Of a stretch of DNA of 51,831 bases, positions 873 through 51,831 are shown one piece after another. The DNA comes from Planctomycetaceae bacterium (GTDB taxonomy: Bacteria; Planctomycetota; Planctomycetia; Planctomycetales; Planctomycetaceae). A model generated the notes under the pieces. It saw nothing but the letters and a program-made list of their open reading frames with translations. It was not told the DNA's origin and ran no database searches. The DNA is taken from NCBI GenBank assembly GCA_040877445.1, contig JBBDNT010000301.1, positions 4,622 through 56,452 of the forward strand. The letters are read 5' to 3'. How positions within the stretch are numbered: position 1 is the stretch's first letter; each line of letters opens with the position of its first letter. The translations under genes were made by a program, and so were the position numbers.

Positions 873-3872
873 TCAACGTCCCGCGAGGCATGTCAGACGG
901 CCGTCGATCATGGAGACGTACAGCTTTCCCCGGGCGGCGGCGAGGCCGTCCAGGACTGGCGGCGCCGCGAGTTCGAGTTTCGCCCGCTGCTCCCCGCTCG
1001 CCGCATCGAGCGCCAGCAGCACGCCGCCGGTCGGCTCCAGCACATCGGGCGAACCGGCGGCGAACAGCGTCTCACCCGCAGGCACCAATGCTCGCACGCG
1101 CACCGGGACCGTCAGCGACCACGCGTCCTCCGCCTGATCGCCCCGCCGCGCGAACAGGCGATGATCGCCTTCCGCGGGGCGGGTCGCGGTGTACTTGTCG
1201 GCATTGGGAAACGCGCTCAGTCCGAAGACGTCGTCCGTCGCGGCGGGGCGGGAATCGTCGCCTCCGGCGTCCTCGTTCGATTCGCGGGCGGACGTGCGGA
1301 ACGCGAGAAGTTGTCCCGTGGCGCGGCCCTTCTCCCACGCGGTGCGATTCGACCAGACGTCCGTCAGAAACGACGCCTGCGCGCGGAGCGGCGCTTCGTC
1401 GATGCGATGGCCACGGCCCCGGAACAAGCCGCTTTCCGGCTCGAGGCAGCCTTCCCACAGGAAGAGGTGCTTGGTTCCCTGCACCAGCAGGTCGGCCCGC
1501 GTCGCCTCCTTGGGAAAGGTCTCCCACGCCAGCGCTCCCGACAGTGGATCGAGGGCCACGATCCGCATGCCCCCGTCGAGCGGACCGTGACGACCCGCCA
1601 GGGCGCAGGCCGTGCCGTTCACGATCGTCACGCTCCCGATGACCGGCCACGGGGACGACAGCCGTCCGTGCGCGACGATTCGGCGAGTTCCCGGAGCGGC
1701 GCGGAACCGCCACGCGAGTTCGCCGCTCGCGGCGTCCAGGCAATACACGAACCCGTCCTCCGAACCGAACAGACAGCGTCCCTCGTGAATCGTGGGCGGA
1801 AACGGAATTCGGCCGCCCGCGGTGAATCGCCATGACTCTCGGCCGGTCGCGGCGTCGAACGCGCACACCTGCTGCGCATCGACCGCGGCGACGAATACCC
1901 GCCCCCCCGCGACCACCGGCGGGGTGATCCGCTCTCCCGGAGCGACATCCGCCGTCCAACTCGATTGCGCGTTCGGCGACACGCTGGTGCTCGCCGCGCC
2001 GCTGCGGCGGGAATCGTGCCGGTAGCACGGCCAATCCTCGGAGTCGATCGCGGCAGCGTTCCGCTCGATGCGATCGTACGCCGGTCCGCGCTCGAGTTCC
2101 CCTTTCCCGCCGCCGTCGTGCGGCAACGGATCGGGCGACATGGCGGTGACGCCGTACAGCATGGGATAGCACCGGCAATCGGTCGGGAAGGTGTAGACCA
2201 ACCCGTTTGCTGGAACCGCGCCGAAGCCGCAGGCGCCGCGCGCCACATGGGGGAAATCGACCTCTCCCGTCGTGCATTCGAAGAAGTGAATCCGCCCGGT
2301 GATGAGATACTTCTCGGTCGCCTGGCCGGGAGCGCACTTGTCCTGAAAGCTCGCGGGAAAGCTTTGCCCGAGCGCGCCGGTGCGGGGGTCGACGCCGATC
2401 CACTGGTCGGGACGCCCCGCGTCCTTGTCTCCCACGTCGTGCGCCCAGACGAGTCCATTGGAAAAGAAGGTATTGATGGGGTGCCCCCGGCCGGAAGCGG
2501 TGTAGGCGTGGGTCCAGGACCGCGAGCCGTCCTTCATCGAAAACCCAAGCAGCCGGCTGCGGGTCGCCATCGCGAGGACGTCGCCGTGGATGCCGCACAG
2601 CGCGAGGTCGCGGTCGAAACGTTCGCGCGTGAGATCCGACACGTCGATCCGCCATTGCGTCTCGCCGTCTGCGATGCGGAAACAGACGACTTCATTATTC
2701 CGCGGGACGTTGACGACCACCCGACCGCCGCCGGCGGCGAAGGCGTTCTCGCGCGAGCCCGGTTCGGCGGACCATTTCGTCTTGCCGCTCTGCGGATCGA
2801 GCAGCCGCAGTTTGTTTCGTTCGAGAAGCAGAACGCCTTCGTTCACGACGATCATGCCGTCGGGCTGGGTGTCGAGGTATTGATCGAGCGTTTTGCCGGT
2901 GGCGGCTTCGAGCGCTTCGAGCGGTCCGCCCGGCGACAGCACCGCGTACACGCGATCGCCGACCGCGACCAGCGTGTTCGCGTTGGGCGAGACGTCGTTG
3001 CGGCCGCCCAGTCGCACCGGCCGCTTCCACAGCACCGTCCCATTGAAGGCGTCGCGCGCGATGAGTTGCGCGTCGGGGGGGACGGCCATGAAGGGCGTCG
3101 CCTCGTCGATGATCGAGAAAAACCGCCCGCCGGCGGAGACCGCTCCCACGGGCCGGCCGGTATGTCCGCGCGCCCGGCCGGGGCCGTCGATCCAGCGGAG
3201 GCTGCGCGTGGGAGCGACGAGTTCATCCCGCGAGGTCGCCCGCCGCGATGGATCGTGCCGGGCGTGAGTCCAGTCATCCATTCCCGCGGGCCGCGGCCGG
3301 ACGAGCTTCACCCATTTTCCCGCGGCGTTCTCGACAGTCTCGACTTCGACGATCGAAGGCGCGGCGGCGCGGACGCGCTTCGCCAGCGCGTCCATCGTTT
3401 CCGCTTTCGCACCCAACAGCGCGACCCCGCGCGGCGTCAGCACGCGGACGATTTCCTCCATCGTCAGACCCGCCGCCGACTGCGCCGGGAAGTTTTCGAC
3501 GACGAGCAGATTGACGAGACCGTCGGCATAGGGCAATTTGCCGGCCGCGATCCATTCCGCGGAAACACGGCCGTACTCGCCCCGGGCGCGAATCGCTTCG
3601 CGGGCCTTCGGAAGCTGGTCCGCATCGCCGACCAGGCCATGCACGAGAAACGGGCGATCGCGTCCCAATTCGGCGGTGACTCGCCCGTCGCCCCCCACGT
3701 GCACGCACAGGCCCCCGGAAATGCCCGCGGCGTCGACGATCGCCCGGGCGACCGCCCGGGCCGACGCGTCGGCGGCGGACGAATCCGCCTCCGCCCGCAG
3801 CGGATTTCCGACAAGCCCGCTTCCCGCGACGGCCAGAATGAAACCGGTGACGATCCTGGTGAGTGCTTGCAT
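873..3872 (-). CDS. PQQ-like beta-propeller repeat protein (BamB/PQQ-repeat family), secreted
   Basis: The long minus-strand ORF is 873..3953. I chose the ATG at 3872 because it gives the signal peptide MQALTRIVTGFILAVAGSGLVG. Blade-like motifs recur throughout (G.LYAVD..TGK..W, DG.VYCLDAASGELAWRF), and the C-terminal blade is GKLYVSMIDGRLTCLAG. Confidence 0.7.
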   Translation of the reverse strand: MQALTRIVTGFILAVAGSGLVGNPLRAEADSSAADASARAVARAIVDAAGISGGLCVHVGGDGRVTAELGRDRPFLVHGLVGDADQLPKAREAIRARGEYGRVSAEWIAAGKLPYADGLVNLLVVENFPAQSAAGLTMEEIVRVLTPRGVALLGAKAETMDALAKRVRAAAPSIVEVETVENAAGKWVKLVRPRPAGMDDWTHARHDPSRRATSRDELVAPTRSLRWIDGPGRARGHTGRPVGAVSAGGRFFSIIDEATPFMAVPPDAQLIARDAFNGTVLWKRPVRLGGRNDVSPNANTLVAVGDRVYAVLSPGGPLEALEAATGKTLDQYLDTQPDGMIVVNEGVLLLERNKLRLLDPQSGKTKWSAEPGSRENAFAAGGGRVVVNVPRNNEVVCFRIADGETQWRIDVSDLTRERFDRDLALCGIHGDVLAMATRSRLLGFSMKDGSRSWTHAYTASGRGHPINTFFSNGLVWAHDVGDKDAGRPDQWIGVDPRTGALGQSFPASFQDKCAPGQATEKYLITGRIHFFECTTGEVDFPHVARGACGFGAVPANGLVYTFPTDCRCYPMLYGVTAMSPDPLPHDGGGKGELERGPAYDRIERNAAAIDSEDWPCYRHDSRRSGAASTSVSPNAQSSWTADVAPGERITPPVVAGGRVFVAAVDAQQVCAFDAATGRESWRFTAGGRIPFPPTIHEGRCLFGSEDGFVYCLDAASGELAWRFRAAPGTRRIVAHGRLSSPWPVIGSVTIVNGTACALAGRHGPLDGGMRIVALDPLSGALAWETFPKEATRADLLVQGTKHLFLWEGCLEPESGLFRGRGHRIDEAPLRAQASFLTDVWSNRTAWEKGRATGQLLAFRTSARESNEDAGGDDSRPAATDDVFGLSAFPNADKYTATRPAEGDHRLFARRGDQAEDAWSLTVPVRVRALVPAGETLFAAGSPDVLEPTGGVLLALDAASGEQRAKLELAAPPVLDGLAAARGKLYVSMIDGRLTCLAGR

Positions 3873-7000: not shown

Positions 7001-8594
7001 GTTCGCTGACGAAGCGGCCGGTGAGGCGGGCGCCGTCCTGCGACAGTTCGAGCGTTCCCGGCACCTTGCCCGAGGCCGATTCGATGACCACGTTCCACTT
7101 CCCGGCGACCTGAAGCGCGGGCTTCTCGCCCGGCTTCACCGGTTCCACCGGCTTGGCCGATTCGTTGTACTCGTACTGGCGTCCGTCGACGAACAGATGG
7201 CGGACCTTTGCCTGCTCGTGCTCCAGCGGCCCGGTGAGCACGACGACGTGCCCCGCTTTTTCCGCTTCGAGAGTCCCCAGTCGATGCTCGACGCCGAGCA
7301 TCGCCGCGGGGTTGGTCGTGAGCGCGGCGAGCGCGGCGTCGGCGGAAAGCCCGTGTTCGATCGCTGTGCGAACCGCTTCGAGCAGTTTCGCCGGATCATC
7401 GAGTCCCTGCGAGCCGAATGCGAACCGCACGCCCGCCTCTTCGAGCGCGGCGGCCGTTCCCACGCGCCGCTTCCAGCGGTCCAGTTCCTCCTGCTGCACG
7501 CGGACGGGAGGCTTGATCTCGGCGACGAGCTTGTCGGAGGCCGGCTGCCGTTCGATCTTCGGCTCCTTGCCGAAGTCCGCCTGCAAAACGACATCGACGT
7601 TTTCCTTCTTCAAGCGATCGACCGCGCGGTGCGCGTCGCGGGCGCCCCACAGCGTGGCGGCGATTTCGCGTTCGGCCGCGAAATCGAGGGCGCGGTGAAT
7701 GTCGTCCCGCGTGGTGACGGTGAACAGCGCGCGGCGCTCGCCGGAACGTACCTGTTCCAATGCGGCGAGCGCCTCGTCGAACACCGGCCGCTCGACGCCG
7801 GGCGTTCGCTGCTCGAACAGTTCGCGATGCAGCGCGTCGCGCTCGGCGTCGAGAAACGCTTGGCGGAGGTGAGCGGTCGTGCCCATCAGCGTCGAGGGAT
7901 ACTCGTTTCCGCCCGGCGCGTACAGGCGGAAGGCGGCGAGCGAGTCCGGCGCGATGACCGCCTCGCGGAGCGGAAGATCCTCCGTCGAAATCAGTGTTCC
8001 CGTGCCGGAGGCGATGCGTCCCGTCGGCACGACATGCGCCGCCGCGAAACCCGCCTTGCGGAACGCTTCGAGCTTCGCCCCTTCGCGCTTCAGTCCGTCG
8101 CGGACGGCGAACTCGGGCGTGAGCAGCCGGCGATTGTCCGGCGGAGTGGCCGCGAGAATGTAACGGCCGAAGTCGATGTTCCGTCCGGCGACCGGCGTGG
8201 GCCTCTTGTCGCCATCGACCAGCGCGCTCGTCCCCGCGTCGATGAAGGCGGCGTACACGACGTGCCCCTGCGCGTCGACCGATTGCGCATCGGCGGGAAC
8301 CTCGACTTCACCCGCTTTGCCGACCGCGACGATCACGCCGTCCCGAATGACGAGCGTTCCCTCGTCGATCGTTTCGCCAGGCCGCACGACGATCCGCGCC
8401 CCGGTGACCGCGAAGACACGGGGCGTGAATCCGACGATGCGGTCGGCGGCTCGCGGTGAATCGCCGCCGATCAGCCCCACGATCGCCGCCGCAACGAGCA
8501 CGAACGCGGCGCGGATGAAACCGGCGACCCGCGTATTCTTGGGTGCATCGAATTTCGTCCGGCGAAGACCGGTCGCGGAATGAGTCACGCGCAT
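4092..8594 (-). CDS. large multi-domain amidohydrolase-family protein with three tandem metal-dependent hydrolase modules, secreted or membrane-anchored
   Basis: I placed the start at the ATG at 8594 (MRVTHSATGL...), which is followed by the hydrophobic anchor AGFIRAAFVLVAAAIVGLIGG. Three modules begin with V(V/I)RDG.I.AVGK. The metal-binding motif PGIIDTHSHI is present, with HxH-like patterns in the other modules. An acidic Ser/Asp-rich linker sits near the C-terminal third. Confidence 0.75.
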   Translation of the reverse strand: MRVTHSATGLRRTKFDAPKNTRVAGFIRAAFVLVAAAIVGLIGGDSPRAADRIVGFTPRVFAVTGARIVVRPGETIDEGTLVIRDGVIVAVGKAGEVEVPADAQSVDAQGHVVYAAFIDAGTSALVDGDKRPTPVAGRNIDFGRYILAATPPDNRRLLTPEFAVRDGLKREGAKLEAFRKAGFAAAHVVPTGRIASGTGTLISTEDLPLREAVIAPDSLAAFRLYAPGGNEYPSTLMGTTAHLRQAFLDAERDALHRELFEQRTPGVERPVFDEALAALEQVRSGERRALFTVTTRDDIHRALDFAAEREIAATLWGARDAHRAVDRLKKENVDVVLQADFGKEPKIERQPASDKLVAEIKPPVRVQQEELDRWKRRVGTAAALEEAGVRFAFGSQGLDDPAKLLEAVRTAIEHGLSADAALAALTTNPAAMLGVEHRLGTLEAEKAGHVVVLTGPLEHEQAKVRHLFVDGRQYEYNESAKPVEPVKPGEKPALQVAGKWNVVIESASGKVPGTLELSQDGARLTGRFVSEQGNGRVAAGKADDAGIELTVSIGAGDREVDLKFTGKLAEGKLAGELKSPFGAPAPWSAQRDDEKDGAGEDENPVTIDIAAEEGSDGAKPQAEWPTELEADRLRRPFETKGNVFIKNATVITGTGETLQEASIVVRDGKIAAVGKDVERPEGDIAVIDATGRYVMPGIIDTHSHIMIEGGVNEYTQSVVPEVRIKDAIDTSDVAQYRALAGGTTAARVFHGSANVIGGQDAVVRFKHGEPARAQILDDAPQGVKFALGENVKGRRDRFPNTRLGVEATLNRAFLEAIDYRRQWNAFELAEKKRAAEAKAAGGNGGGEKAASPSVLPPRRDLRLEALADIVDHKKFIHSHCYRADEILMLLRTARDLGIRVWSLQHVLEGYKIAPEIVAHGASCSTFADWWAYKVEAFDATPYNAALLDEAGANVVIKSDNAELIRHLNLEAAKAIRYGGMPPDRAIQAVTRNAARELGLHDRLGTIEPGKLADMAIYNGHPLSTFSRCEIALVGGEVYYHREGAPTVMSEKQRERSKQAPPLEFASDEVREKKLDLEPHANGRYAIVGATLHPVDGPVIEKGTLVVEDGNIAALGKSNDVDVPTDAKVIDAKGLHVYPGLIDAGTTLGLTEIDRLRETHDFAESGLLQPDIRAGVAVNVDSELIPAARAGGITSILIRPNGGLIGGQASTVQLAGWTAEEMVLEYEAGLVIGWPEGKDAKKQREQLEEFFEQAREYDRVRAAAEKRSSNKSDSESDDSASDDFDGGVVDPRLEAMRPYLHAKKPVFIEAYTRQQIAEALLFAEKWKLKPVITGGRDAWKLADELKKRDVPVIVGPVMVPPAEHDPLDAPYANPGRLHEAGVKFCIRSDSAWNSRNAPFEAGMAVAFGLPEEEALRAVTLSAAEIVGLGDSLGSLTVGKRANLLIGDGTPLQPSSQVKAVFIAGRPFAPESRQTRFYERYRQRLAEKRGENASKVTDRPRE

Positions 8595-17242: not shown

Positions 17243-17275
17243 GCGTCGCCGCGAAGTTCACGAGGTAAGTAGGAG

Positions 17276-17378
17276 CCGAGGGGTTTATCCCCTCGGTGGG
17301 GATGCGGGGGCCGCAAAGGAAGGCTCACGTTTTCTCGTTGCGGTCGCCGCAGGACCACCGCGGGGATAAACCCCGCGG
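17276..17378. terminator. pair of inverted-duplicate GC-rich stem-loops between convergent genes (bidirectional terminator candidates)
   Basis: Hairpin 1 at 17276-17296 is ccgagggg-tttat-cccctcgg. Hairpin 2 at 17358-17378 is ccgcgggg-ataaa-ccccgcgg, the reverse-complement copy of hairpin 1 with one substitution. They lie between the MBL hydrolase stop (17242) and the GTPase stop (17398). Confidence 0.55.
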
Positions 17379-17397
17379 CTCGACGAGAGATCGCGAA

Positions 17398-22933: not shown

Positions 22934-23115
22934 GGTTAGCCGCGACGCGAAGGCTCTGCGCAGCGGAGCGCTCGCCCCGCGCGCGACCCGCGATTGACCC
23001 GTTCGACGGGCTGGTCTACAGTCCCGCCGCCTCACGATACGCTGGCAGAGGCGCGCTGTCCAATGTGGCGTGGCGGAGCGCTCCGCTGCGCAGAGCCTTC
23101 GCGTCGCGGCTAACC
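22934..23115. repeat. MITE-like element: perfect 40-bp terminal inverted repeats flanking a 102-bp core
   Basis: The sequence at 22934-22973, ggttagccgcgacgcgaaggctctgcgcagcggagcgctc, is the exact reverse complement of 23076-23115. The element lies between divergent holA and the phosphohexomutase-like gene. The outer 13-16 nt (CGCGTCGCGGCTAACC) recur at 4 other intergenic sites in the window. Confidence 0.8.
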
Positions 23116-35893: not shown

Positions 35894-35994
35894 CGTCATT
35901 CCCGCGCAGGCGGGAATCCAGTAATCGCCAAGGCGGTTACCAATGGGATTACTGTCCGTGCATCGACTGGGTTCCCGCCTTCGCGGGAATGACG
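35894..35994. repeat. nested multi-hairpin element (three stem-loops enclosed by a 13-bp outer inverted repeat)
   Basis: Outer inverted repeat: cgtcattcccgcg at 35894-35906 pairs with cgcgggaatgacg at 35982-35994. Inner hairpin A at 35898-35917 is attcccgc-gcag-gcgggaat. Inner hairpin B at 35919-35954 pairs cagtaatc with gattactg. Inner hairpin C at 35972-35989 is ttcccgc-cttc-gcgggaa. The element lies between the ECF sigma gene stop (36035) and the PQQ remnant and giant-gene operon. Confidence 0.5.
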
Positions 35995-40271: not shown

Positions 40272-40344
40272 CGGGTGGTACGGGAGTCGAACCCGTGACA
40301 GCCAGATTATCAGTCTGGTGCTCTACCCACTGAGCTAACCACAG
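40272..40344 (-). tRNA. tRNA-Ile (anticodon GAT), with an imperfect acceptor stem
   Basis: The reverse complement reads CTGTGGT-TA-GCTC-AGTGGGTA-GAGC-A-CCAGA-CTGATAA-TCTGG-CTGTC-ACGGG-TTCGACT-CCCGT-ACCACCC-G. The D-arm, anticodon arm (loop CTGATAA, anticodon GAT) and T-arm (TTCGA) are canonical. Positions 1-2 (C,T) do not pair with 71-72 (C,C). CCA is not encoded. Confidence 0.6.
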
Positions 40345-40820
40345 CCGATGCCATCCGGTTCCGAACCCAGTGAGGAACACGCGCCGCCAAATCGCCTGAT
40401 GACGAGGCGCCGCGCGCCGCTGGCCGAACGACACCGTCCGTTTGCCTGAATTTCCTCCTTTGACAGCCGTGGAACGGACGCACCGTCGGGCGAAATGGTT
40501 CGCGTCATCCCGACCATTCTCGACAATCATCCCGCAACTCCGCTCCGCGAGCGCCCCGTCATTCGACGTCCGGCGCATCCGGCGGGGTGCGGCAATCTTC
40601 ACTGGCGTGTGGCAAAAAGTCGGGTGGCGGGGGCGCTTCGCGCAGCGAAAGCCCCCGTCGCGCGCCACGGGGGCTTCCGCGTTGCGGAGCGCCCCCGCCA
40701 CCCATCGCCACAGAGATTGGCGTCGCCAGGAACTCTTGCCGCCCCATCCGGCGACCATCTTCGGTTCCGCCTTGATCCGGCGTTCCATGTCGTTTACGAT
40801 CGATGGTCGAGGCGAACGTC

Positions 40821-41368: not shown

Positions 41369-42532
41369 GTGTTTCGACTGCTCCCGTGGGAGTACGGCGT
41401 TCGCAACCTGATGCGCCGGCCCGTCCGCACGCTGCTGACGTTCGCCGGGCTGACGACGGTGATCGTGCTGATTCTCGTCGTCGCGGGATTCATCCGCGGG
41501 CTGGAGCGGTCGCTGGCGGTCAGCGGCGACCCGGCCACGGCGATCGTGTTCGGTCTCGGCATGGGCGAAAACCTCGAATACTCGTCGATCCCCATGCGGA
41601 CCAGCGATCTCGTCGCGGCCAGCGTCGGCGGCATTTCCGAACGGCACGGGCGGAAGTACGTCTCGCCGGAACTGTATCTCGGAACGGAAGTCGGCATTCA
41701 GGGACGGGACAAGCCGGGCTTTGGACTGGTGCGCGGACTGACGCCGGCCGTGTTGCTTGTCCGGCAGCAAGTCGAGATCGAAGCAGGCGCGTGGCCCAAG
41801 AGCGGCGAAGTGCTCGTCGGTCGAATGGCGGCCGTCAAACTCGGACTGGCGCGCGATGCGTTGCGAATCGGCGACGTGCTCGAGTTCGAAAACCGGCGGT
41901 GGCGGATCAGCGGGCTGTTCTCGGCCGGCGGGGCGACGTTCGAATCCGAAATCTGGTGCCGGCTGGATGAACTCCAGCAGGCGATGAAGCGGCAGGATCT
42001 GAGTCTGGTGGCGCTCACGCTCGCTCCGGGGGGGGACTTCGCCGATCTCGATCTGTTCTGCAAGGAACGGCTCGACCTGGAGTTGCAGGCGATGCGCGAG
42101 ACCGCCTACTACGACACGCTCCAGAAGGATTACCGTCCCGTGCGGATGCTCGCCTGGCTGGTGGTGCTGCTGGTCGCGGGGGCCGGAACGTTCGCCGGTC
42201 TCAACACGATGTACGGCGCGGTCGTGGGCCGCGTCCGCGAGTTGGCGACGTTGCAAACGCTCGGCTTCGTCCGCCGGGCGATCGTCGTCAGTCTGTTCCA
42301 GGAAGGACTGCTGCTCGCGGCGGCGGCGAGCCTGTTCGCCACGCTGCTGGCGGTGACGATTCTCGACGGGGCCGCCGTGCGGTTCACGATGAGCGCCTTC
42401 GCGCTCCGCGTGGATGAGGTCGCCGTGCTCATCGGCTGCGGAGCCGGTATGGCGATCGGCCTGTTGGGGGCGATTCCCCCGGCGATCCGCGCGATGCGGC
42501 AACCCATCGTCGAAGGATTGAAGGCGATTTGA
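41369..42532 (+). CDS. ABC transporter permease, FtsX/MacB-like family
   Basis: A GTG at 41369 gives VFRLLPWEYGVRNLMRRPVRTLLTFAGLTTVIVLILVVAG, the FtsX N-terminal signature (LRNL.RRP.RTLLT + TM1). A large periplasmic domain and three C-terminal TM helices follow. The upstream 309 codons of the ORF are Arg-rich non-coding-like sequence. Confidence 0.75.
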   Translation: MFRLLPWEYGVRNLMRRPVRTLLTFAGLTTVIVLILVVAGFIRGLERSLAVSGDPATAIVFGLGMGENLEYSSIPMRTSDLVAASVGGISERHGRKYVSPELYLGTEVGIQGRDKPGFGLVRGLTPAVLLVRQQVEIEAGAWPKSGEVLVGRMAAVKLGLARDALRIGDVLEFENRRWRISGLFSAGGATFESEIWCRLDELQQAMKRQDLSLVALTLAPGGDFADLDLFCKERLDLELQAMRETAYYDTLQKDYRPVRMLAWLVVLLVAGAGTFAGLNTMYGAVVGRVRELATLQTLGFVRRAIVVSLFQEGLLLAAAASLFATLLAVTILDGAAVRFTMSAFALRVDEVAVLIGCGAGMAIGLLGAIPPAIRAMRQPIVEGLKAI

Positions 42533-42597
42533 ATTCCAAGATTCTCCGTCGGAAGGAGGCCGACGCAATTAAGGGTTCCACAGAACTGAATTTGGAT

Positions 42598-42698
42598 GCT
42601 GGAGGCGTGTAAGACGGATTGGCAATCCTTCCAATGGTGATCGAGTCGGCAGAACGATCGACCTCCGGCGACGTTGATGCCCCACCGGCGGATTGCCA
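42598..42698. repeat. two copies of a palindromic GTAAGACGGATTGGCAATCCGTCTTAC-type element
   Basis: The sequence at 42598-42617 is gtaagacggattggcaatcc. The sequence at 42678-42698, cggattgccaatccgtcctac, is its approximate reverse complement. More copies lie at 45997-46016 and 51782-51796. Confidence 0.5.
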
Positions 42699-42761
42699 AT
42701 CCGTCCTACGGGCTACCCACGATTTCGAAACCGAATCTTCTACTCTCGAAAGGTACTCCCC

Positions 42762-43313
42762 ATGCAATGCTCGAAGAAGCTCATGCAGGTGAAATGGTTG
42801 GCCGCGCTCGCGATCGTCGCGGTGTTCGCCGGATGCAACCGCGGAACGACGGAGACTGCACCCGATCGAACTGACGCGAGCGAATCGAACGCCGACCGTG
42901 CCGAATTCGTGCTCGCCGACGAGCCGGACGGTGCGAACGACGTGATCGCCGCCCGCGAATCTTCATCGGACGGCGACGATGTGGTCGTCGTCGGTCGGAT
43001 CGGCGGCAGCGAAAACCCGTGGGTCGAGGGACGCGCGGCGTTCTCGATCGTCGATCGCTCGCTCCAGGCGTGCAGCGACATCCCCGGCGACGCCTGTTCG
43101 ATGCCGTGGGACTATTGTTGCGAGACCGACAAACTGCCGAAGGCGACCGCGCTCGTGAAGTTCGTCGATGCCGACGGCCAGCTCGTGAAGTCCGACGCCC
43201 GCGAACTGCTGGGGCTGAAGGAATTGCAAACGGTCGTCGTCCGCGGCAAGTCGCACCGCGACGAGAGCGGCAACCTGACCGTGCTCGCGAACGGCGTCTT
43301 CGTCCGCGAATGA
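42762..43313 (+). CDS. hypothetical lipoprotein
   Basis: An ATG at 42762 gives MQCSKKLMQVKWLAALAIVAVFAGC with the lipobox FAGC. The mature region is acidic and includes CSDIPGDACSMPWDYCCE. It sits between the permease and the HlyD adaptor in one orientation. Confidence 0.55.
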   Translation: MQCSKKLMQVKWLAALAIVAVFAGCNRGTTETAPDRTDASESNADRAEFVLADEPDGANDVIAARESSSDGDDVVVVGRIGGSENPWVEGRAAFSIVDRSLQACSDIPGDACSMPWDYCCETDKLPKATALVKFVDADGQLVKSDARELLGLKELQTVVVRGKSHRDESGNLTVLANGVFVRE

Positions 43314-43335
43314 GAGAGAGTGTGTCTTCGAATCC

Positions 43336-43405
43336 GTAGCGGAAGTCGCAAGACTTCCGACGCTCGCTCGGACGCTCTCGGAATTCTTGCGAATTCCGCT
43401 ACGTC
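43336..43405. repeat. composite REP-like element: two inverted 24-bp hairpin motifs (CGGAATTCTTGCGAATTCCGCTAC family), also resembling an ECF-type -35/-10 promoter
   Basis: The sequence at 43336-43359 is gtagcggaagtcgcaagacttccg. The sequence at 43379-43402 is cggaattcttgcgaattccgctac, followed by gtc. Each motif is an 8-bp stem with a ttgc loop. The two substitutions in the first copy are compensatory (cggaagtc/gacttccg). On the plus strand this reads GGAAT-N17-CGTC, 55 nt upstream of the HlyD start. Confidence 0.6.
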
Positions 43406-43460
43406 GATGGCGGCGTCAACGCATCACCACGGCTTTCGAAGACAGACTCGGAGGTGCTCC

Positions 43461-45068
43461 ATGCGTGCCGATGTCGATCTGTCGCAATTGGCGCTCGATC
43501 GCGGTCCGGGGCCGGCCATCCGGTCCCGGAGCCGCATCGGGTCGCGGTATGTCCTGCCGGGAGCGTTGTTGCTGGGCGTGTGCGGACTCGCGGTGTGGGG
43601 CACATGGAATCTGCTGTTCCCGCCGCGGGCGGTGACGGTCGTTCCCGTACACGTCAGCCGCAGCGCGATCCAGCGGGAAGGGACGCCGCTGTTTCAGGCC
43701 GCCGGCTGGGTCGAGCCGCGTCCCACGCCGATCCGCGTCGCCGCGCTCGCGCCCGGAGTGATCGAGGAACTGCTCGTCGTGGAAGATCAGGTGGTCGAGG
43801 CGGGGGAGCCGGTCGCCCGTCTTGTCCGGGAAGACGCCGAACTCTCTTACCGCCGGGCGCAGGCCGATCTCGCCCTTCGCCAGGCGGAAGTCGCCGAGAC
43901 CCGCGCGCTGTTGCAGGCGGCGGCGACGCGCCTCGATCAGCCGGTGCATCTGGAAGCCGTCGTCGGCGACGCGGAGGCCTCGCTGGCGAAGGTCGAGACC
44001 GCCCTGGAGACGATCCCGTCCGAAATCGACTCGGCCGTTGCGAAAGTCGAGTACGCCCAGGCCGACTACGATCGGCGCATCGCCGCCCGCGACGCGGTGA
44101 CGACTCTCATGCGCGAGGAAGGCCGAAGCGCGCTCGCGATTGCGCGAGCGAATCTGGAAGGACTGAAGCGTCGTCGAGTCGCGCTCGACAACGAGCGGAA
44201 GGCGCTCGCGGCGCGGCGCGACGCGCTCCGCACGCAGCTCGAATTGCTCGCCGACGAAATCGAAGCCCGCGACACCGCTTACGCGCGGCTGAAATCCGCC
44301 GAGGCCCGCGTCGAACAGGCCGAGGTGGCGCTGGCGGAGGCGAAGCTGCGGCTCGACCGCATGACCGTCCGCGCCCCGGTCGCCGGACGCGTGTTGAACC
44401 TCACCTCCGATCCCGGCACGCGGTTGACCGAGGGAATGGGAGACGCCGGCACCGAAGACATGAGCACCGTCGTCACCATGTACCGGCCGGAAAGCCAGCA
44501 GGTCCGCGTCGACGTGCGTTTCGCGGACATTCCTCATGTCGCGCTCGGCCAGCCGGTGCGGATCGAGAACCCGGCGGTGAAGGAACCGCTCAGCGGGCGG
44601 GTGTTGTTCATCAGCTCGCGGGCCGACATTCAAAAGAACACGCTGGAAGTGAAGGTCTCGATCGACTCGCCGCCTTCGGTGTTCAAGCCGGAGATGCTCG
44701 TCGACGTGACGTTCCTCGCGCCGGAGATCCTCGACGATGAATCCGAACCGTCGGAAGAGCTGCGGATCTACGTCCCGCAACGGTTGATCACGCGCGACGG
44801 CGACGCCGCTTTCGTATGGGTGGCCGATCAGTCGGAAGGCCGCGCCCGTCGCGTTTCCGTCGAACTCGGTGCGGCGAGCGGCGACGGGCTGGTCGAAGTC
44901 GCGTCCGGGCTGACGATCGCGAGTCGCCTGATCGCGGGGGGGCACGATGGACTCCGCGACGGCGACCGAATCCGCGTGACTGGCGAAGAGACCCTCTCGG
45001 AAGCCACGGCCCCGGCCGCCGAGCGCTCCCGCAACCCCAGCCGCTTTCCCACGGGAGACGCATCGTGA
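43461..45068 (+). CDS. HlyD-family periplasmic adaptor (membrane fusion protein)
   Basis: An ATG at 43461 is preceded by a GGAGG RBS. The product has an N-terminal TM anchor [16 protein letters not shown], a long Ala/Glu/Arg/Leu coiled-coil ([26 protein letters not shown] ... [31 protein letters not shown]) and a beta-barrel C-terminus. Its stop overlaps the next gene's GTG (GTGA). Confidence 0.8.
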
Positions 45069-45796
45069 CCGCACTCGTCCAGGTTCGCCACGTCGCCAAG
45101 CGCTATCACAAAGGGGGCGAAACGATCACGCCGCTCGACGGCGTCTCGCTCGACGTCGCGCAAGGGGAGTTTCTTTCGCTGATGGGGGCCAGCGGGACCG
45201 GGAAATCGACGCTGTTGAACCTCATCGCGGGCATCGACCGCCCGGACGAAGGAAGCATCGCCGTCGCCGGAACCGAAATCACCCGCCTCTCGCGCACGCG
45301 GCTGGCGCATTGGCGGGCGGCGAACGTCGGCTACATCTTTCAGACGCACAACCTCGTGCCGGTGCTCACCGCCTACGAGAACATCGAGCTGCCGTTGCTC
45401 TTGCTTTCGATGTCGCGAGCCGAGCGCCGCAAGCGCGTCGCCGTCGCGTTGGAAGCGGTCGGGCTGACCGACCGGGCGGACCATTATCCCCGGCAGCTTT
45501 CCGGCGGACAGGAGCAGCGGGTCGGCATCGGCCGGGCGATCGTGGCGCATCCCACGCTGGTCGTCGCCGACGAGCCGACCGGCGACCTCGACCCCGAAAC
45601 CTCGGAGCAGATTCTACACCTGCTGCGGCGGCTCAACGACGAACTCGGCATCACGCTGCTGATGGTCACGCACGATCGGGAGGCGGCGGGAATCGCCGAC
45701 CGGCAATTCCATCTCGATCAGGGCCGGCTGGTGGAATCGGGAATGGGAGATCGAAAATCAGAGATCAGAGATCCGGCGTTGTCATCGAACCGGTAG
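45065..45796 (+). CDS. ABC transporter ATP-binding protein (MacB/LolD-type)
   Basis: Walker A is [12 protein letters not shown]. The ABC signature is [14 protein letters not shown]. Walker B is [12 protein letters not shown], and the H-loop is VTHD. Confidence 0.85.
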
Positions 45797-46016
45797 GACG
45801 GAATTGTATTCCGTCCGCCAAGAAAACCGTTGCGTTTCGTGTTGCAGACGATGATCGGGAACGGCGACGATCGCGCATGTCTCACCGGCGGGCGGGGACG
45901 ACGGAATATAATTCCGTCCTACCCGCCCATGCGTCTCTCCACAAAATGAAACGTGAAAACGTACTACTGCCTCTATCAACATCGACGTCGTGGGAAGGAT
46001 TGCCAATCCGCCTTAC
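45793..46016. repeat. cluster of three related palindromic hairpin elements (GTAGGACGGAAT...ATTCCGTCCTAC and GGATTGCCAATCCGCCTTAC types)
   Basis: The sequence at 45793-45816 is gtaggacggaat-tgt-attccgtcc. The sequence at 45898-45921 is gacgacggaat-ata-attccgtcctac. The sequence at 45997-46016 is ggattgccaatccgccttac. All lie in the 330-bp gap between the ABC ATPase and the second permease. Confidence 0.5.
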
Positions 46017-46125
46017 ACGCTGCCACCGCAAATGCGAACTTGACGAGGTACTTCGGCATGATGCCTATCGCGCGCATTGACCGCTTTTGGCTGGCACTTG
46101 GCCTCTGACCTCTGGGAACCAAACA

Positions 46126-47268
46126 ATGCTCCGCTTCCTCCCCTACATCGCGAAGACGCTCTGGCGGCATCGCTCGCGGACGCTGTTGACCGTGAGCGGT
46201 TCGGCCGTGGCGTTGTTCGTGTTCTGCGTCATCGGCGCGATCCATGAAGGCATGCACGATCTGCGGACCCGGCAGGAGGCGGAGCAATCGCTGATCGTCT
46301 TCCAGGCGAACAAGTTCTGCCCCGCGACCAGCCATTTGCCGCAGGATTACGACGAGCAGATCGCACGCTTCGACGGCGTGCGCGACGTCGTGCCGATCCA
46401 GGTCTTCACCAACAACTGCCGGGCGAGTCTCGACGTCGTCGTGTTCTATGGACTGCCGGCGGCGAAGCTCCGCGCGATCCGCGATTTCGAGCTGACCGAC
46501 GGGAACTGGTCGGAGTTCGAGCGCAATCAGGACGCGGCGGTCGTCGGCCGGGCGGTCGCCGCGCGGCGGGGCATCCGCGTGGGCGACAAGTTCTCCATCG
46601 GCGACATCTCGACGGTGGTCGCCGGGATCTACTCGTCGGGCAATCCGGCCGAGGAGAATTACATCTACACGCACCTCGACTTCCTGCAGCGCCGCCGGGG
46701 GGCGGACTCGGTCGGTACGGTGACGCAGCATGAAGTGCTGTTGGCCGAAGGCATCGACGCCGCGGCGGTGGCCGAAAATATCGACGACCAGTTCCGCGGC
46801 GGCCCGGTCGAAACCGACACGCGGCCGAAGGGCGTCTTCCAGGCGAAAAGCCTCGGCGATCTCGCGCAGCTCATCGCGCTGTCGTATTATCTGGGACTCG
46901 CCTGCGTGGGGCTGGTGCTCGCGCTGGTGGCGACGACGACGCTGATGTCGGTCCAGGATCGCGTCCAAGAGCACGCGGTGTTGCAGACGCTCGGCTTTTC
47001 CGGCCCGCGGGTGTTCGCGCTCGTGCTGACCGAGAGCGTCGTGCTCGGCTTGGCGGGCGGCGCGCTCGGCGTGGGCGGGGCGTTCGTCGTCCTCGAGTCG
47101 ACGAGCCTCGCGATCAGCGCCGAGGCGGTCAGCGTCGCCTTTCAGGCTTCCTGGCGTCTCGCCGGCGTCGCCTTGTTGACGGCCCTCGCGACCGGCTTCC
47201 TCGCCGGCATTCTCCCCGCCTGGCAAGCCGCCCGCACCGAGATCGTCCCGGCGCTGCGGAATGCATGA
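46126..47268 (+). CDS. ABC transporter permease, FtsX/MacB-like family (second copy)
   Basis: An ATG at 46126 gives MLRFLPYIAKTLWRHRSRTLLTVSGSAVALFVFCVIGAI, the FtsX N-terminus plus TM1. A periplasmic domain and three C-terminal TM helices (LIALSYYLGLACVGLVLAL..., VFALVLTESVVLGLAGGALG..., LAGVALLTALATGFLAGILPA) follow. Confidence 0.75.
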   Translation: MLRFLPYIAKTLWRHRSRTLLTVSGSAVALFVFCVIGAIHEGMHDLRTRQEAEQSLIVFQANKFCPATSHLPQDYDEQIARFDGVRDVVPIQVFTNNCRASLDVVVFYGLPAAKLRAIRDFELTDGNWSEFERNQDAAVVGRAVAARRGIRVGDKFSIGDISTVVAGIYSSGNPAEENYIYTHLDFLQRRRGADSVGTVTQHEVLLAEGIDAAAVAENIDDQFRGGPVETDTRPKGVFQAKSLGDLAQLIALSYYLGLACVGLVLALVATTTLMSVQDRVQEHAVLQTLGFSGPRVFALVLTESVVLGLAGGALGVGGAFVVLESTSLAISAEAVSVAFQASWRLAGVALLTALATGFLAGILPAWQAARTEIVPALRNA

Positions 47269-49365: not shown

Positions 49366-49440
49366 GTAGCGGAATTCGCAAGAATTCCGGCGATGTCGCA
49401 GTTGCTGGCCCATGTCGGAACTCTTGCGAATTCCGCTACG
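49366..49440. repeat. second copy of the composite REP-like double-hairpin element
   Basis: The sequence at 49366-49389 is gtagcggaattcgcaagaattccg, the exact reverse complement of 43379-43402. The sequence at 49416-49439 is cggaactcttgcgaattccgctac. The arrangement matches the copy at 43336-43405. It lies between the DUF1501 start (49181) and the small gene ending at 49469. Confidence 0.6.
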
Positions 49441-51744: not shown

Positions 51745-51831
51745 TACCGCTTCAGGCTTGAACTTGGCGGTTGAATCCGTGGTAAGACGGATTGGCGGCA
51801 CCCATGCGATCAAGCCTCACTGGCGTGTCGG

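Follow-up and report, generated by a model that had tools for sequence, protein, structure and literature searches.

What are the palindromic repeats that lie between the genes of an ABC exporter operon in a planctomycete, and do they regulate it? The operon belongs to a stretch of 51,831 nucleotides from a Planctomycetaceae bacterium (GCA_040877445.1, contig JBBDNT010000301.1, positions 4,622 to 56,452, forward strand), hereafter called the window. An earlier reading of the bare sequence (the original prediction) had described here a family of palindromes of about 27 bp, clustered in the intergenic gaps of the exporter locus, and had proposed protein dimer-binding sites or RNA/DNA hairpins, three of which, in a single gap, may delimit or attenuate transcription into the second permease gene. 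Our analysis leads to another answer: the elements are very probably GTAG-tagged repetitive extragenic palindromes (REPs), mostly arranged as head-out REPINs (REP doublets forming hairpins), that is, non-autonomous mobile DNA inserted between the genes of a MacB-type ABC exporter operon that was once compact.

The family itself is real and non-random. The motif GTARGACGG has five matches in the window against 0.28 expected, and none of 100 shuffled sequences reached five. Each of the six units, read 5' to 3' on its own strand, starts with a GTA(G/A) head followed by an imperfect hairpin with an 8-bp stem and a 3-nt loop, which is the short stem-loop of GTAG-tagged REPs. Two types can be distinguished. 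Units of the A-type pattern, GTA(A/G)G(A/G)CGGATTGGCAATCC, have their heads at 42609 (+), 42709 (-) and 46016 (-), and a remnant of 15 nt begins at 51782 (+); those of the B-type pattern, GTAGGACGGAATT(G/A)TATTCCGTC, have theirs at 45793 (+) and 45922 (-). The first two intervals originally reported were about 10 nt off, and the remaining ones were right. The units and the doublets that they form are the following:

42609-42631, + strand: A-type REP unit GTAAGACGGATTGGCAATCCTTC, left arm of doublet 1, inner end decayed
42687-42709, - strand: A-type REP unit GTAGGACGGATTGGCAATCCGCC, right arm of doublet 1
45793-45816, + strand: B-type REP unit GTAGGACGGAATTGTATTCCGTC (also written GTAGGACGGAATTGTATTCCGTCC), beginning at the ATPase stop codon
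45900-45922, - strand: B-type REP unit GTAGGACGGAATTATATTCCGTC
45990-46016: decayed single A-type unit, a 27-nt palindrome, + strand sequence GTGGGAAGGATTGCCAATCCGCCTTAC, head on the - strand at 46016
51782-51796, + strand: truncated A-type remnant GTAAGACGGATTGGC, first 15 nt only and then divergent, just downstream of a TPR gene
42609-42709: head-out A-type doublet 1, arms of 20 nt, 95% complementary, 61-nt spacer, inside the 229-bp gap between permease 1 and the lipoprotein gene
45793-45922: head-out B-type doublet, arms of 24 nt, 96% complementary, 84-nt spacer

The pairing of these units into two head-out (HH) inverted doublets had previously been overlooked. An inverted-repeat scan places the arms of the first doublet at 42609-42628 and 42690-42709, and those of the second at 45792-45815 and 45900-45923. 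As single-stranded DNA, each doublet folds into one long hairpin (-31.4 kcal/mol and z -5.9 for the first, z -4.0 for the second). Both are therefore inverted REP pairs with a short spacer and a single long hairpin, as REPINs are. The single unit at 45990-46016 (z -0.6) and the remnant at 51782 (z -0.8) fold no better than shuffled sequences, and both are decayed; the remnant is not a hairpin. At 45793, the stop codon of the ATPase gene is the TAG of the GTAG head of the B-type unit. The family, which is common in MAGs (metagenome-assembled genomes) of planctomycetes and Chloroflexota, can be recognised by the signature GTAGG(A/G)CGGA(T/A)T-NNN-A(A/T)TCCG(T/C)CCTAC.

Then, we looked for the same repeat elsewhere, in one genome per species, with the 23-mer pattern GTARGRCGGAWTKRYAWTCCKYC. 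At least 112 genome blocks contain it, whereas about 9 would be expected by chance according to our own arithmetic (37 bits vs. 1.2e12 positions). The motif thus exceeds chance both in the window and elsewhere, and the claim that it defines a family stands. Among the matches listed, almost all come from Planctomycetota, Chloroflexota and Verrucomicrobiota. They include metagenome-assembled genomes (MAGs) of Gemmataceae, Pirellulaceae, Planctomycetaceae, Thermoguttaceae and Isosphaeraceae for the Planctomycetota, and Anaerolineae, Litorilinea and a 3.76-Mb Promineifilaceae chromosome for the Chloroflexota. Lone matches in an Ignavibacteriales MAG and in Emticicia may be due to chance. Several MAGs hold at least 5-10 blocks each among these matches. 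The listed units occur as singles, as head-out doublets of about 55-57 nt or as tandem arrays with a period of 30-38 nt. Such arrays are not CRISPR arrays (the spacing is 30-38 nt and there are no unique spacers), and the units are not integron attC sites, as they have no R''/R' core. The A-type dimer had no match in plasmid sequences.

The consensus of the listed matches is GTAGG(A/G)CGGA(T/A)T-(G/T)(G/A)(C/T)-A(A/T)TCCG(T/C)C, and about 37% of the listed units run on into CTAC, TTAC or CCAC, i.e. complete the 27-nt palindrome. All 134 listed units from elsewhere begin with GTAG or GTAA, a head that the search pattern itself demanded. This pattern nevertheless permitted non-complementary combinations in the stem. 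At stem position 6/22, the 134 units display A-T 106 times, G-C 26 times, G-T twice and A-C never; at position 11/17, T-A is found 105 times, A-T 28 times and A-A once. For the 29 distinct sequences among these matches, pairing is kept in 98.3% of the cells, both partners have changed in two of the pairs, and none of 500 shuffles attained the observed pairing or covariation score. The stem is thus kept by compensatory substitutions across genomes, and the original prediction was right to propose hairpins. Moreover, the dominant variant differs from genome to genome among the matches listed (e.g. TTGGCAA, TTTGCAA or TTGGTAA centres), and one MAG carries a compensated subfamily, GGTTTTGCAAACC. 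A sequence population that replicates inside each genome should leave such a picture. None of the matches listed from other genomes has the exact B-type centres (TGT, TAT) seen in the window.

Mobility could be followed in another genome. In block L100, a long open reading frame (ORF) encodes the peptides VGRIGNPS...RIANPSY, which derive from A-type doublets, and its product is the BREX-1 protein PglZ. Compared with six orthologs (74-90% protein identity), this PglZ displays three clean in-frame insertions of 17-19 residues each. At the DNA level (L100:940-3492 vs. its ortholog L206:10001-12385, 87% identical), A-type doublets account for two of these insertions (net +45 and +54 bp), and a doublet of another, third type for the remaining one (+57 bp). 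This third GTAG REP type, GTAG-GTCAGGCT-TTCC-AGCCTGAC, was found in two Planctomycetota MAGs (L100:2198-2254 and L046:1398-1420). The L100/L206 alignment shows no target-site duplication at any of the three insertion sites. Since the insertions are clean and absent from the 87%-identical gene, whole doublets of the family have been inserted recently, in frame, as units of 45-57 bp; in the pglZ gene of this other genome, the doublet is therefore the copied unit, as in REPINs. A further intragenic copy lies in a kinase gene of L115, and another one apparently in a sensor kinase gene of L052. A-type repeats can thus add 15-19 in-frame codons to real proteins such as the BREX protein PglZ.

We then compared the host operon with its repeat-free orthologs. 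In the window, the Pfam-based map is as follows (all genes on the + strand):

41480-47268: host operon, with repeats in its gaps
ending at 42532: MacB/FtsX permease 1
42762-43313: small lipoprotein-like ORF
43461-45068: HlyD-type adaptor
45065-45796: ABC ATPase
46126-47268: MacB/FtsX permease 2

Outside the source organism, the nearest relatives of the window HlyD are only about 60% identical. The ortholog operon L200 (HlyD 57% identical) has the same gene order as the window, and no REP was found in it. The junctions of the two operons compare as follows:

permease 1/lipoprotein gene: 54 bp in L200, 229 bp in the window
lipoprotein gene/hlyD: 8 bp in L200, 147 bp in the window
hlyD/ATPase: adjacent with one shared base in L200, overlapping in the window
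ATPase/permease 2: 4 bp in L200, 329 bp in the window

Every enlarged gap of the window (229, 147 and 329 bp) contains REPs, and the 329-bp gap between the ATPase and permease 2 holds three units. The contrast between gaps of 54, 8 and 4 bp without REPs and gaps of 229, 147 and 329 bp filled with REPs points to insertion into a once-compact operon. The related exporter operon L202 has no REPs where the ATPase gene meets that of permease 2; an extra gene of 118 aa (7450-7806) with Pfam matches to 23S_rRNA_IVP and bAvd sits there instead. In addition, a short-read contig of 2,484 bp from an independent assembly of the same organism (L199, SRR27977662) is identical to window positions 43338-45821; one of its ends is within a REP of a sister family (C-type, see below) and the other just past the B-type REP. 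Breaks at these places would be expected if the repeats are multi-copy in the organism. The A/B- and C-type repeats thus fragment short-read MAG assemblies, and the long gaps of the exporter operon are best read as insertion scars of selfish hairpin repeats and not as regulatory architecture, which should guard against over-reading such gaps as operators or attenuators.

As for the mechanism, the A/B-type family would have been copied by a REP-associated tyrosine transposase (RAYT) of the HUH/Y1 class. By analogy with E. coli TnpA-REP and with IS200/IS605, such an enzyme would recognise the 5' GTAG and the foot of the hairpin on single-stranded DNA, and the single-stranded A-type DNA GTAGGACGGATTGGCAATCCGTC would be a putative target for binding or cleavage by a candidate RAYT. 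A RAYT is the best inference for the A-type because the E. coli REP on which the TnpA-REP studies were done (PMC4690160) has exactly the A-type foot, GTAGGACGGAT...ATCCG, and because GTAG head, 8-bp stem, short loop and HH doublet are common to the A-type and to the C-type sister family. The copies at the exporter locus would be passengers. Once transcribed as part of the operon mRNA, they may incidentally fold into stable hairpins and so change the decay of the message or the read-through from the ATPase gene to that of permease 2, a side effect that is possible by analogy with E. coli REPs.

The C-type family, also missed before, has the pattern GTAGCGGAA(G/T)TCGCAAGA(A/C/G)TTCCG and forms head-out doublets at two sites of the window:

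43336-43402: C-type REP doublet, GTAGCGGAAGTCGCAAGACTTCCG and its inverted copy with 19 nt between them, filling the 147-bp gap from the lipoprotein gene to hlyD, DNA fold z -7.6
49366-49439: C-type REP doublet, GTAGCGGAATTCGCAAGAATTCCG and its inverted copy, DNA fold z -6.9

To look for a transposase, we started from the Rhodopirellula baltica RAYT RB11751, taken from the supplementary alignment of PMC3733652. It has 863 homologs of about 60% identity across planctomycete families, with invariant D73, H74 and H76 (HUH, DHxH) and Y135..N139-P140 (Y..NPER motif). The family has no match in Pfam; among solved structures, only E. coli TnpA-REP 4ER8 was retrieved (E = 0.031), and hhalign against E. 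coli RayT gave a probability of 75% (E = 2.5e-5). We examined the context of 84 loci, including L115/L116, L117, L118 and 80 metagenome loci. The gene is flanked on both sides by GTAG-tagged REP doublets in L115/L116 and L118 (contigs of Gemmataceae and Planctomycetaceae) and in the readable metagenome flanks, while no flanking REP was found at the L117 locus (12.7-Mb contig). In the closer relatives, the flanking REP has the C-type architecture of the window: GTAGC, then an 8-bp stem with a loop of GCCA or GCAA. In L118 (3579-3582), the stop codon of the RAYT gene is the TAG of the GTAG head of the flanking REP, in parallel with the ATPase stop codon at 45793. With its HUH and catalytic tyrosine motifs, its homology to TnpA-REP and its REP-flanked gene, the RB11751-like protein can be assigned to the RAYTs from sequence. 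The C-type sister family is thus tied to a well-conserved planctomycete RAYT family outside Pfam coverage.

For the A/B-type itself, several observations weigh against the interpretation as RAYT-copied REPINs. None of the 84 RB11751-like loci has A/B-type REPs in its flanks, and no RAYT adjoins an A/B-type unit in the window or in the at least 112 A-type blocks. A RAYT gene flanked by its own REP (REPtron) was thus found, within these loci, blocks and window, for the C-type architecture and not for the A/B-type. The search over all ORFs of the blocks and the window used a regular expression for HUH and Y..NP motifs and phmmer with E. coli RayT, RB11751, Oter_2468 and RB2408. It yielded only two TIRYT-like (Y1-like) genes, in L031 and L046, neither of them flanked by repeats, and no Y1/HUH transposase among the ORFs of the window. 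No relative of the RAYTs was found in viral contigs. The ORFs lying between A-type units in L011, L052, L062 and L072 do not look like transposases either: on inspection, they resemble a TrpE-like protein, a response regulator, sensor kinases and a permease-like protein. Furthermore, REPs are usually lineage-specific, and it is out of the ordinary for one to have nearly the same 23-mer in several phyla. The insertion polymorphism was seen in another genome and not in the source organism, whose copy number is inferred and not counted, the 52-kb window being the part of it that was scanned.

These observations leave some room for a variant of the same view, in which the A/B-type would be a REPIN lineage that departs from the common pairing of a single, vertically inherited RAYT with lineage-specific REPs. 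As an orphan, or mobilised in trans, it would have spread horizontally, perhaps with phages, or else it would be served by an unrecognised single-strand DNA transposase. We consider this possible but unlikely. It draws on the fact that the 23-mer is multi-copy in three phyla, never lies beside the RAYT of the sister family (84 loci) and is carried between phage structural genes. Indeed, a viral contig of 11 kb (L204, IMGVR_UViG_3300037041_001124) holds six A-type units, at 3242, 3759, 4897, 4960, 8311 and 8356, with conserved extended flanks (AAGACTAC|GTAGG...CC|CACAAACCAAG), and several of them bracket a GP7-type major capsid gene. This phage contig is a possible vehicle for the horizontal spread of A-type units. 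That no adjoining RAYT was found in the blocks, loci and window would also suit miniature inverted-repeat transposable elements (MITEs) moved by a DDE transposase or another non-RAYT enzyme, or an orphan family without a dedicated transposase, like the CGTC REPs. In the Anaerolineae MAG CAZEBW01 (L019, L053, L059, L062, L084 and L097), the A-type hairpin and a second hairpin, GTCGGAATACCATTCCGAC, lie within a repeat of some 125 bp that has its own terminal inverted repeats (GGGTGTGTTTCA...TGAAACACACCC). Yet GTAG head and HH doublets match RAYT-associated REPs, including the sister family of the window, and the three fresh L100/L206 insertion sites do not show the target-site duplication of a classical MITE. 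This explanation is therefore unlikely.

Two regulatory explanations can be confronted with the same data. Operator sites of a dimeric transcription factor controlling this ABC exporter, the first suggestion of the original prediction, would account for the perfect dyad symmetry and for the position of the units between genes of one operon. Such sites would be expected only at the promoters of a regulon and conserved at orthologous loci, which is not what was found. The same 23-mer lies beside unrelated genes in the blocks of several phyla, with no specific recurrent neighbour among the matches listed: clustering of the surrounding ORFs gave ABC ATPases and Ser/Thr kinases as sole recurrent neighbours, and both are ubiquitous. 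Copies also occur inside ORFs, in frame, and in a phage contig, whereas the orthologous operons L200 and L202 have none, and several copies of the window are decayed. Protein dimer-binding sites are thus not borne out, and we regard them as extremely improbable. It is also quite unlikely that the units are functional RNA instead of passengers, selected to adjust the ATPase/permease 2 ratio by attenuating transcription or stabilising mRNA. E. coli REPs do affect mRNA stability and termination, three units share a single gap, and among the matches listed the presence of G-T pairs and the absence of A-C pairs fit pairing in RNA. But no unit is followed by a T-tract terminator: a scan of 42400-46300 for intrinsic terminators gave 3 sites vs. 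3.4 expected, none of them at a REP, and the sequences after the units read, for instance, gccaagaaaa or acccgccca. The orthologous operon works with a junction of 4 bp, the single unit at 45990-46016 is decayed, and REP families other than this one are placed in the same way in further gaps of the window. The absence of T-tract terminators and of units in the compact ortholog, together with the wide distribution elsewhere, speaks against a device delimiting transcription into permease 2. No locus-specific regulatory role is supported for the repeats.

Clustering in the exporter locus, as originally claimed, is not special either. On a rough gene map, most gaps of the window longer than about 140 bp hold a palindromic element, and since other intergenic gaps likewise carry palindromic doublets, the exporter locus is not singled out. 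Besides the C-type doublets, the window contains the following features:

17270-17381: hairpin doublet GTAGGAGCCGAGGGGTTTATCCCCTCGG ... CCGCGGGGATAAACCCCGCGGCTC, GTAG head on the left arm only
22934-23115: perfect 40-nt inverted repeat GGTTAGCCGCGACGCGAAGGCTCTGCGCAGCGGAGCGCTC, 102-nt spacer, in a divergent intergenic region
35894-35994: CGTC-tagged REP doublet, CGTC-ATTCCCGC-GCAG-GCGGGAAT and its inverted copy with 43 nt between them
40275-40342, - strand: tRNA gene
40622-40703: near-perfect palindrome of 82 nt, upstream of the first permease gene and about 280 bp from the tRNA gene

The tRNA gene is the sole match of the Rfam covariance models in the window, and no Rfam family matches the repeats.

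Finally, we compared the elements with known systems. The GTAG REP superfamily was defined by Di Nocera, De Gregorio and Rocco in 2013 (PMC3733652), with families in R. baltica, Opitutus terrae and Thermomicrobium roseum. These authors report that HH dimers predominate, describe intragenic copies and discuss the association with RAYTs; their abstract mentions effects of E. coli REPs on mRNA stability and termination. The elements of the window share with GTAG REPs (R. baltica GTAG-20/21/22) the terminal GTAG, a 6-13-bp stem, a short loop and complementary stem variants within each family. They also share the predominance of HH dimers 20-100 bp apart, the intergenic location between co-directional genes and the occasional in-frame intragenic copies. 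The C-type resembles GTAG-21 of R. baltica, as back-translated from the REP-encoded peptides of that paper (SRIRQEF, RILANPA), in which GTAG-21 dimers are placed inside RB11752 and RB11765, locus numbers that are near the RAYT gene RB11751. The A/B-type differs in that a single copy makes up a complete 27-nt palindrome headed at each end, and in that at least three phyla carry nearly the same sequence. The peptides that GTAGG(A/G)CGGA(T/A)T-NNN-A(A/T)TCCG(T/C)C would encode are absent from the table of intragenic REPs in PMC3733652, and the A/B-type DNA motifs from the supplementary tables of PMC3733652 and PMC6006769. We did not find the sequence in the searchable literature, where the A/B-type family thus appears to be undescribed, the REP/REPIN kind itself being known. 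The family is, in addition, unusually widespread.

The CGTC-tagged REPs, the other superfamily of PMC3733652, to which one doublet of the window belongs (35894-35994), likewise consist of short tagged hairpins that form HH doublets, and no dedicated transposase is known for them; their tag is CGTC, whereas A/B-type elements carry GTAG or GTAA. With REPIN-RAYT systems (Bertels and Rainey 2011, PMC3116915; E. coli REPs, or bacterial interspersed mosaic elements (BIMEs), with RayT, 4ER8), the elements have in common an inverted REP pair that forms one long hairpin and moves as a unit, and a master sequence that is specific to each genome. In contrast with these systems, no flanking RAYT was found for the A/B-type in the loci, blocks and window examined. 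The planctomycete RAYT that flanks C-type REPs is for its part very divergent: it lacks a Pfam match, reaches 4ER8 only at E = 0.031 and has an hhalign probability of 75%. Moreover, REPIN-RAYT systems are described as mostly vertically inherited, whereas the A/B-type sequence is common to several phyla. Should this distribution be the result of horizontal spread with no RAYT linked to the repeat, it would be relevant to the debate on whether the inheritance of REPIN-RAYT systems is strictly vertical.

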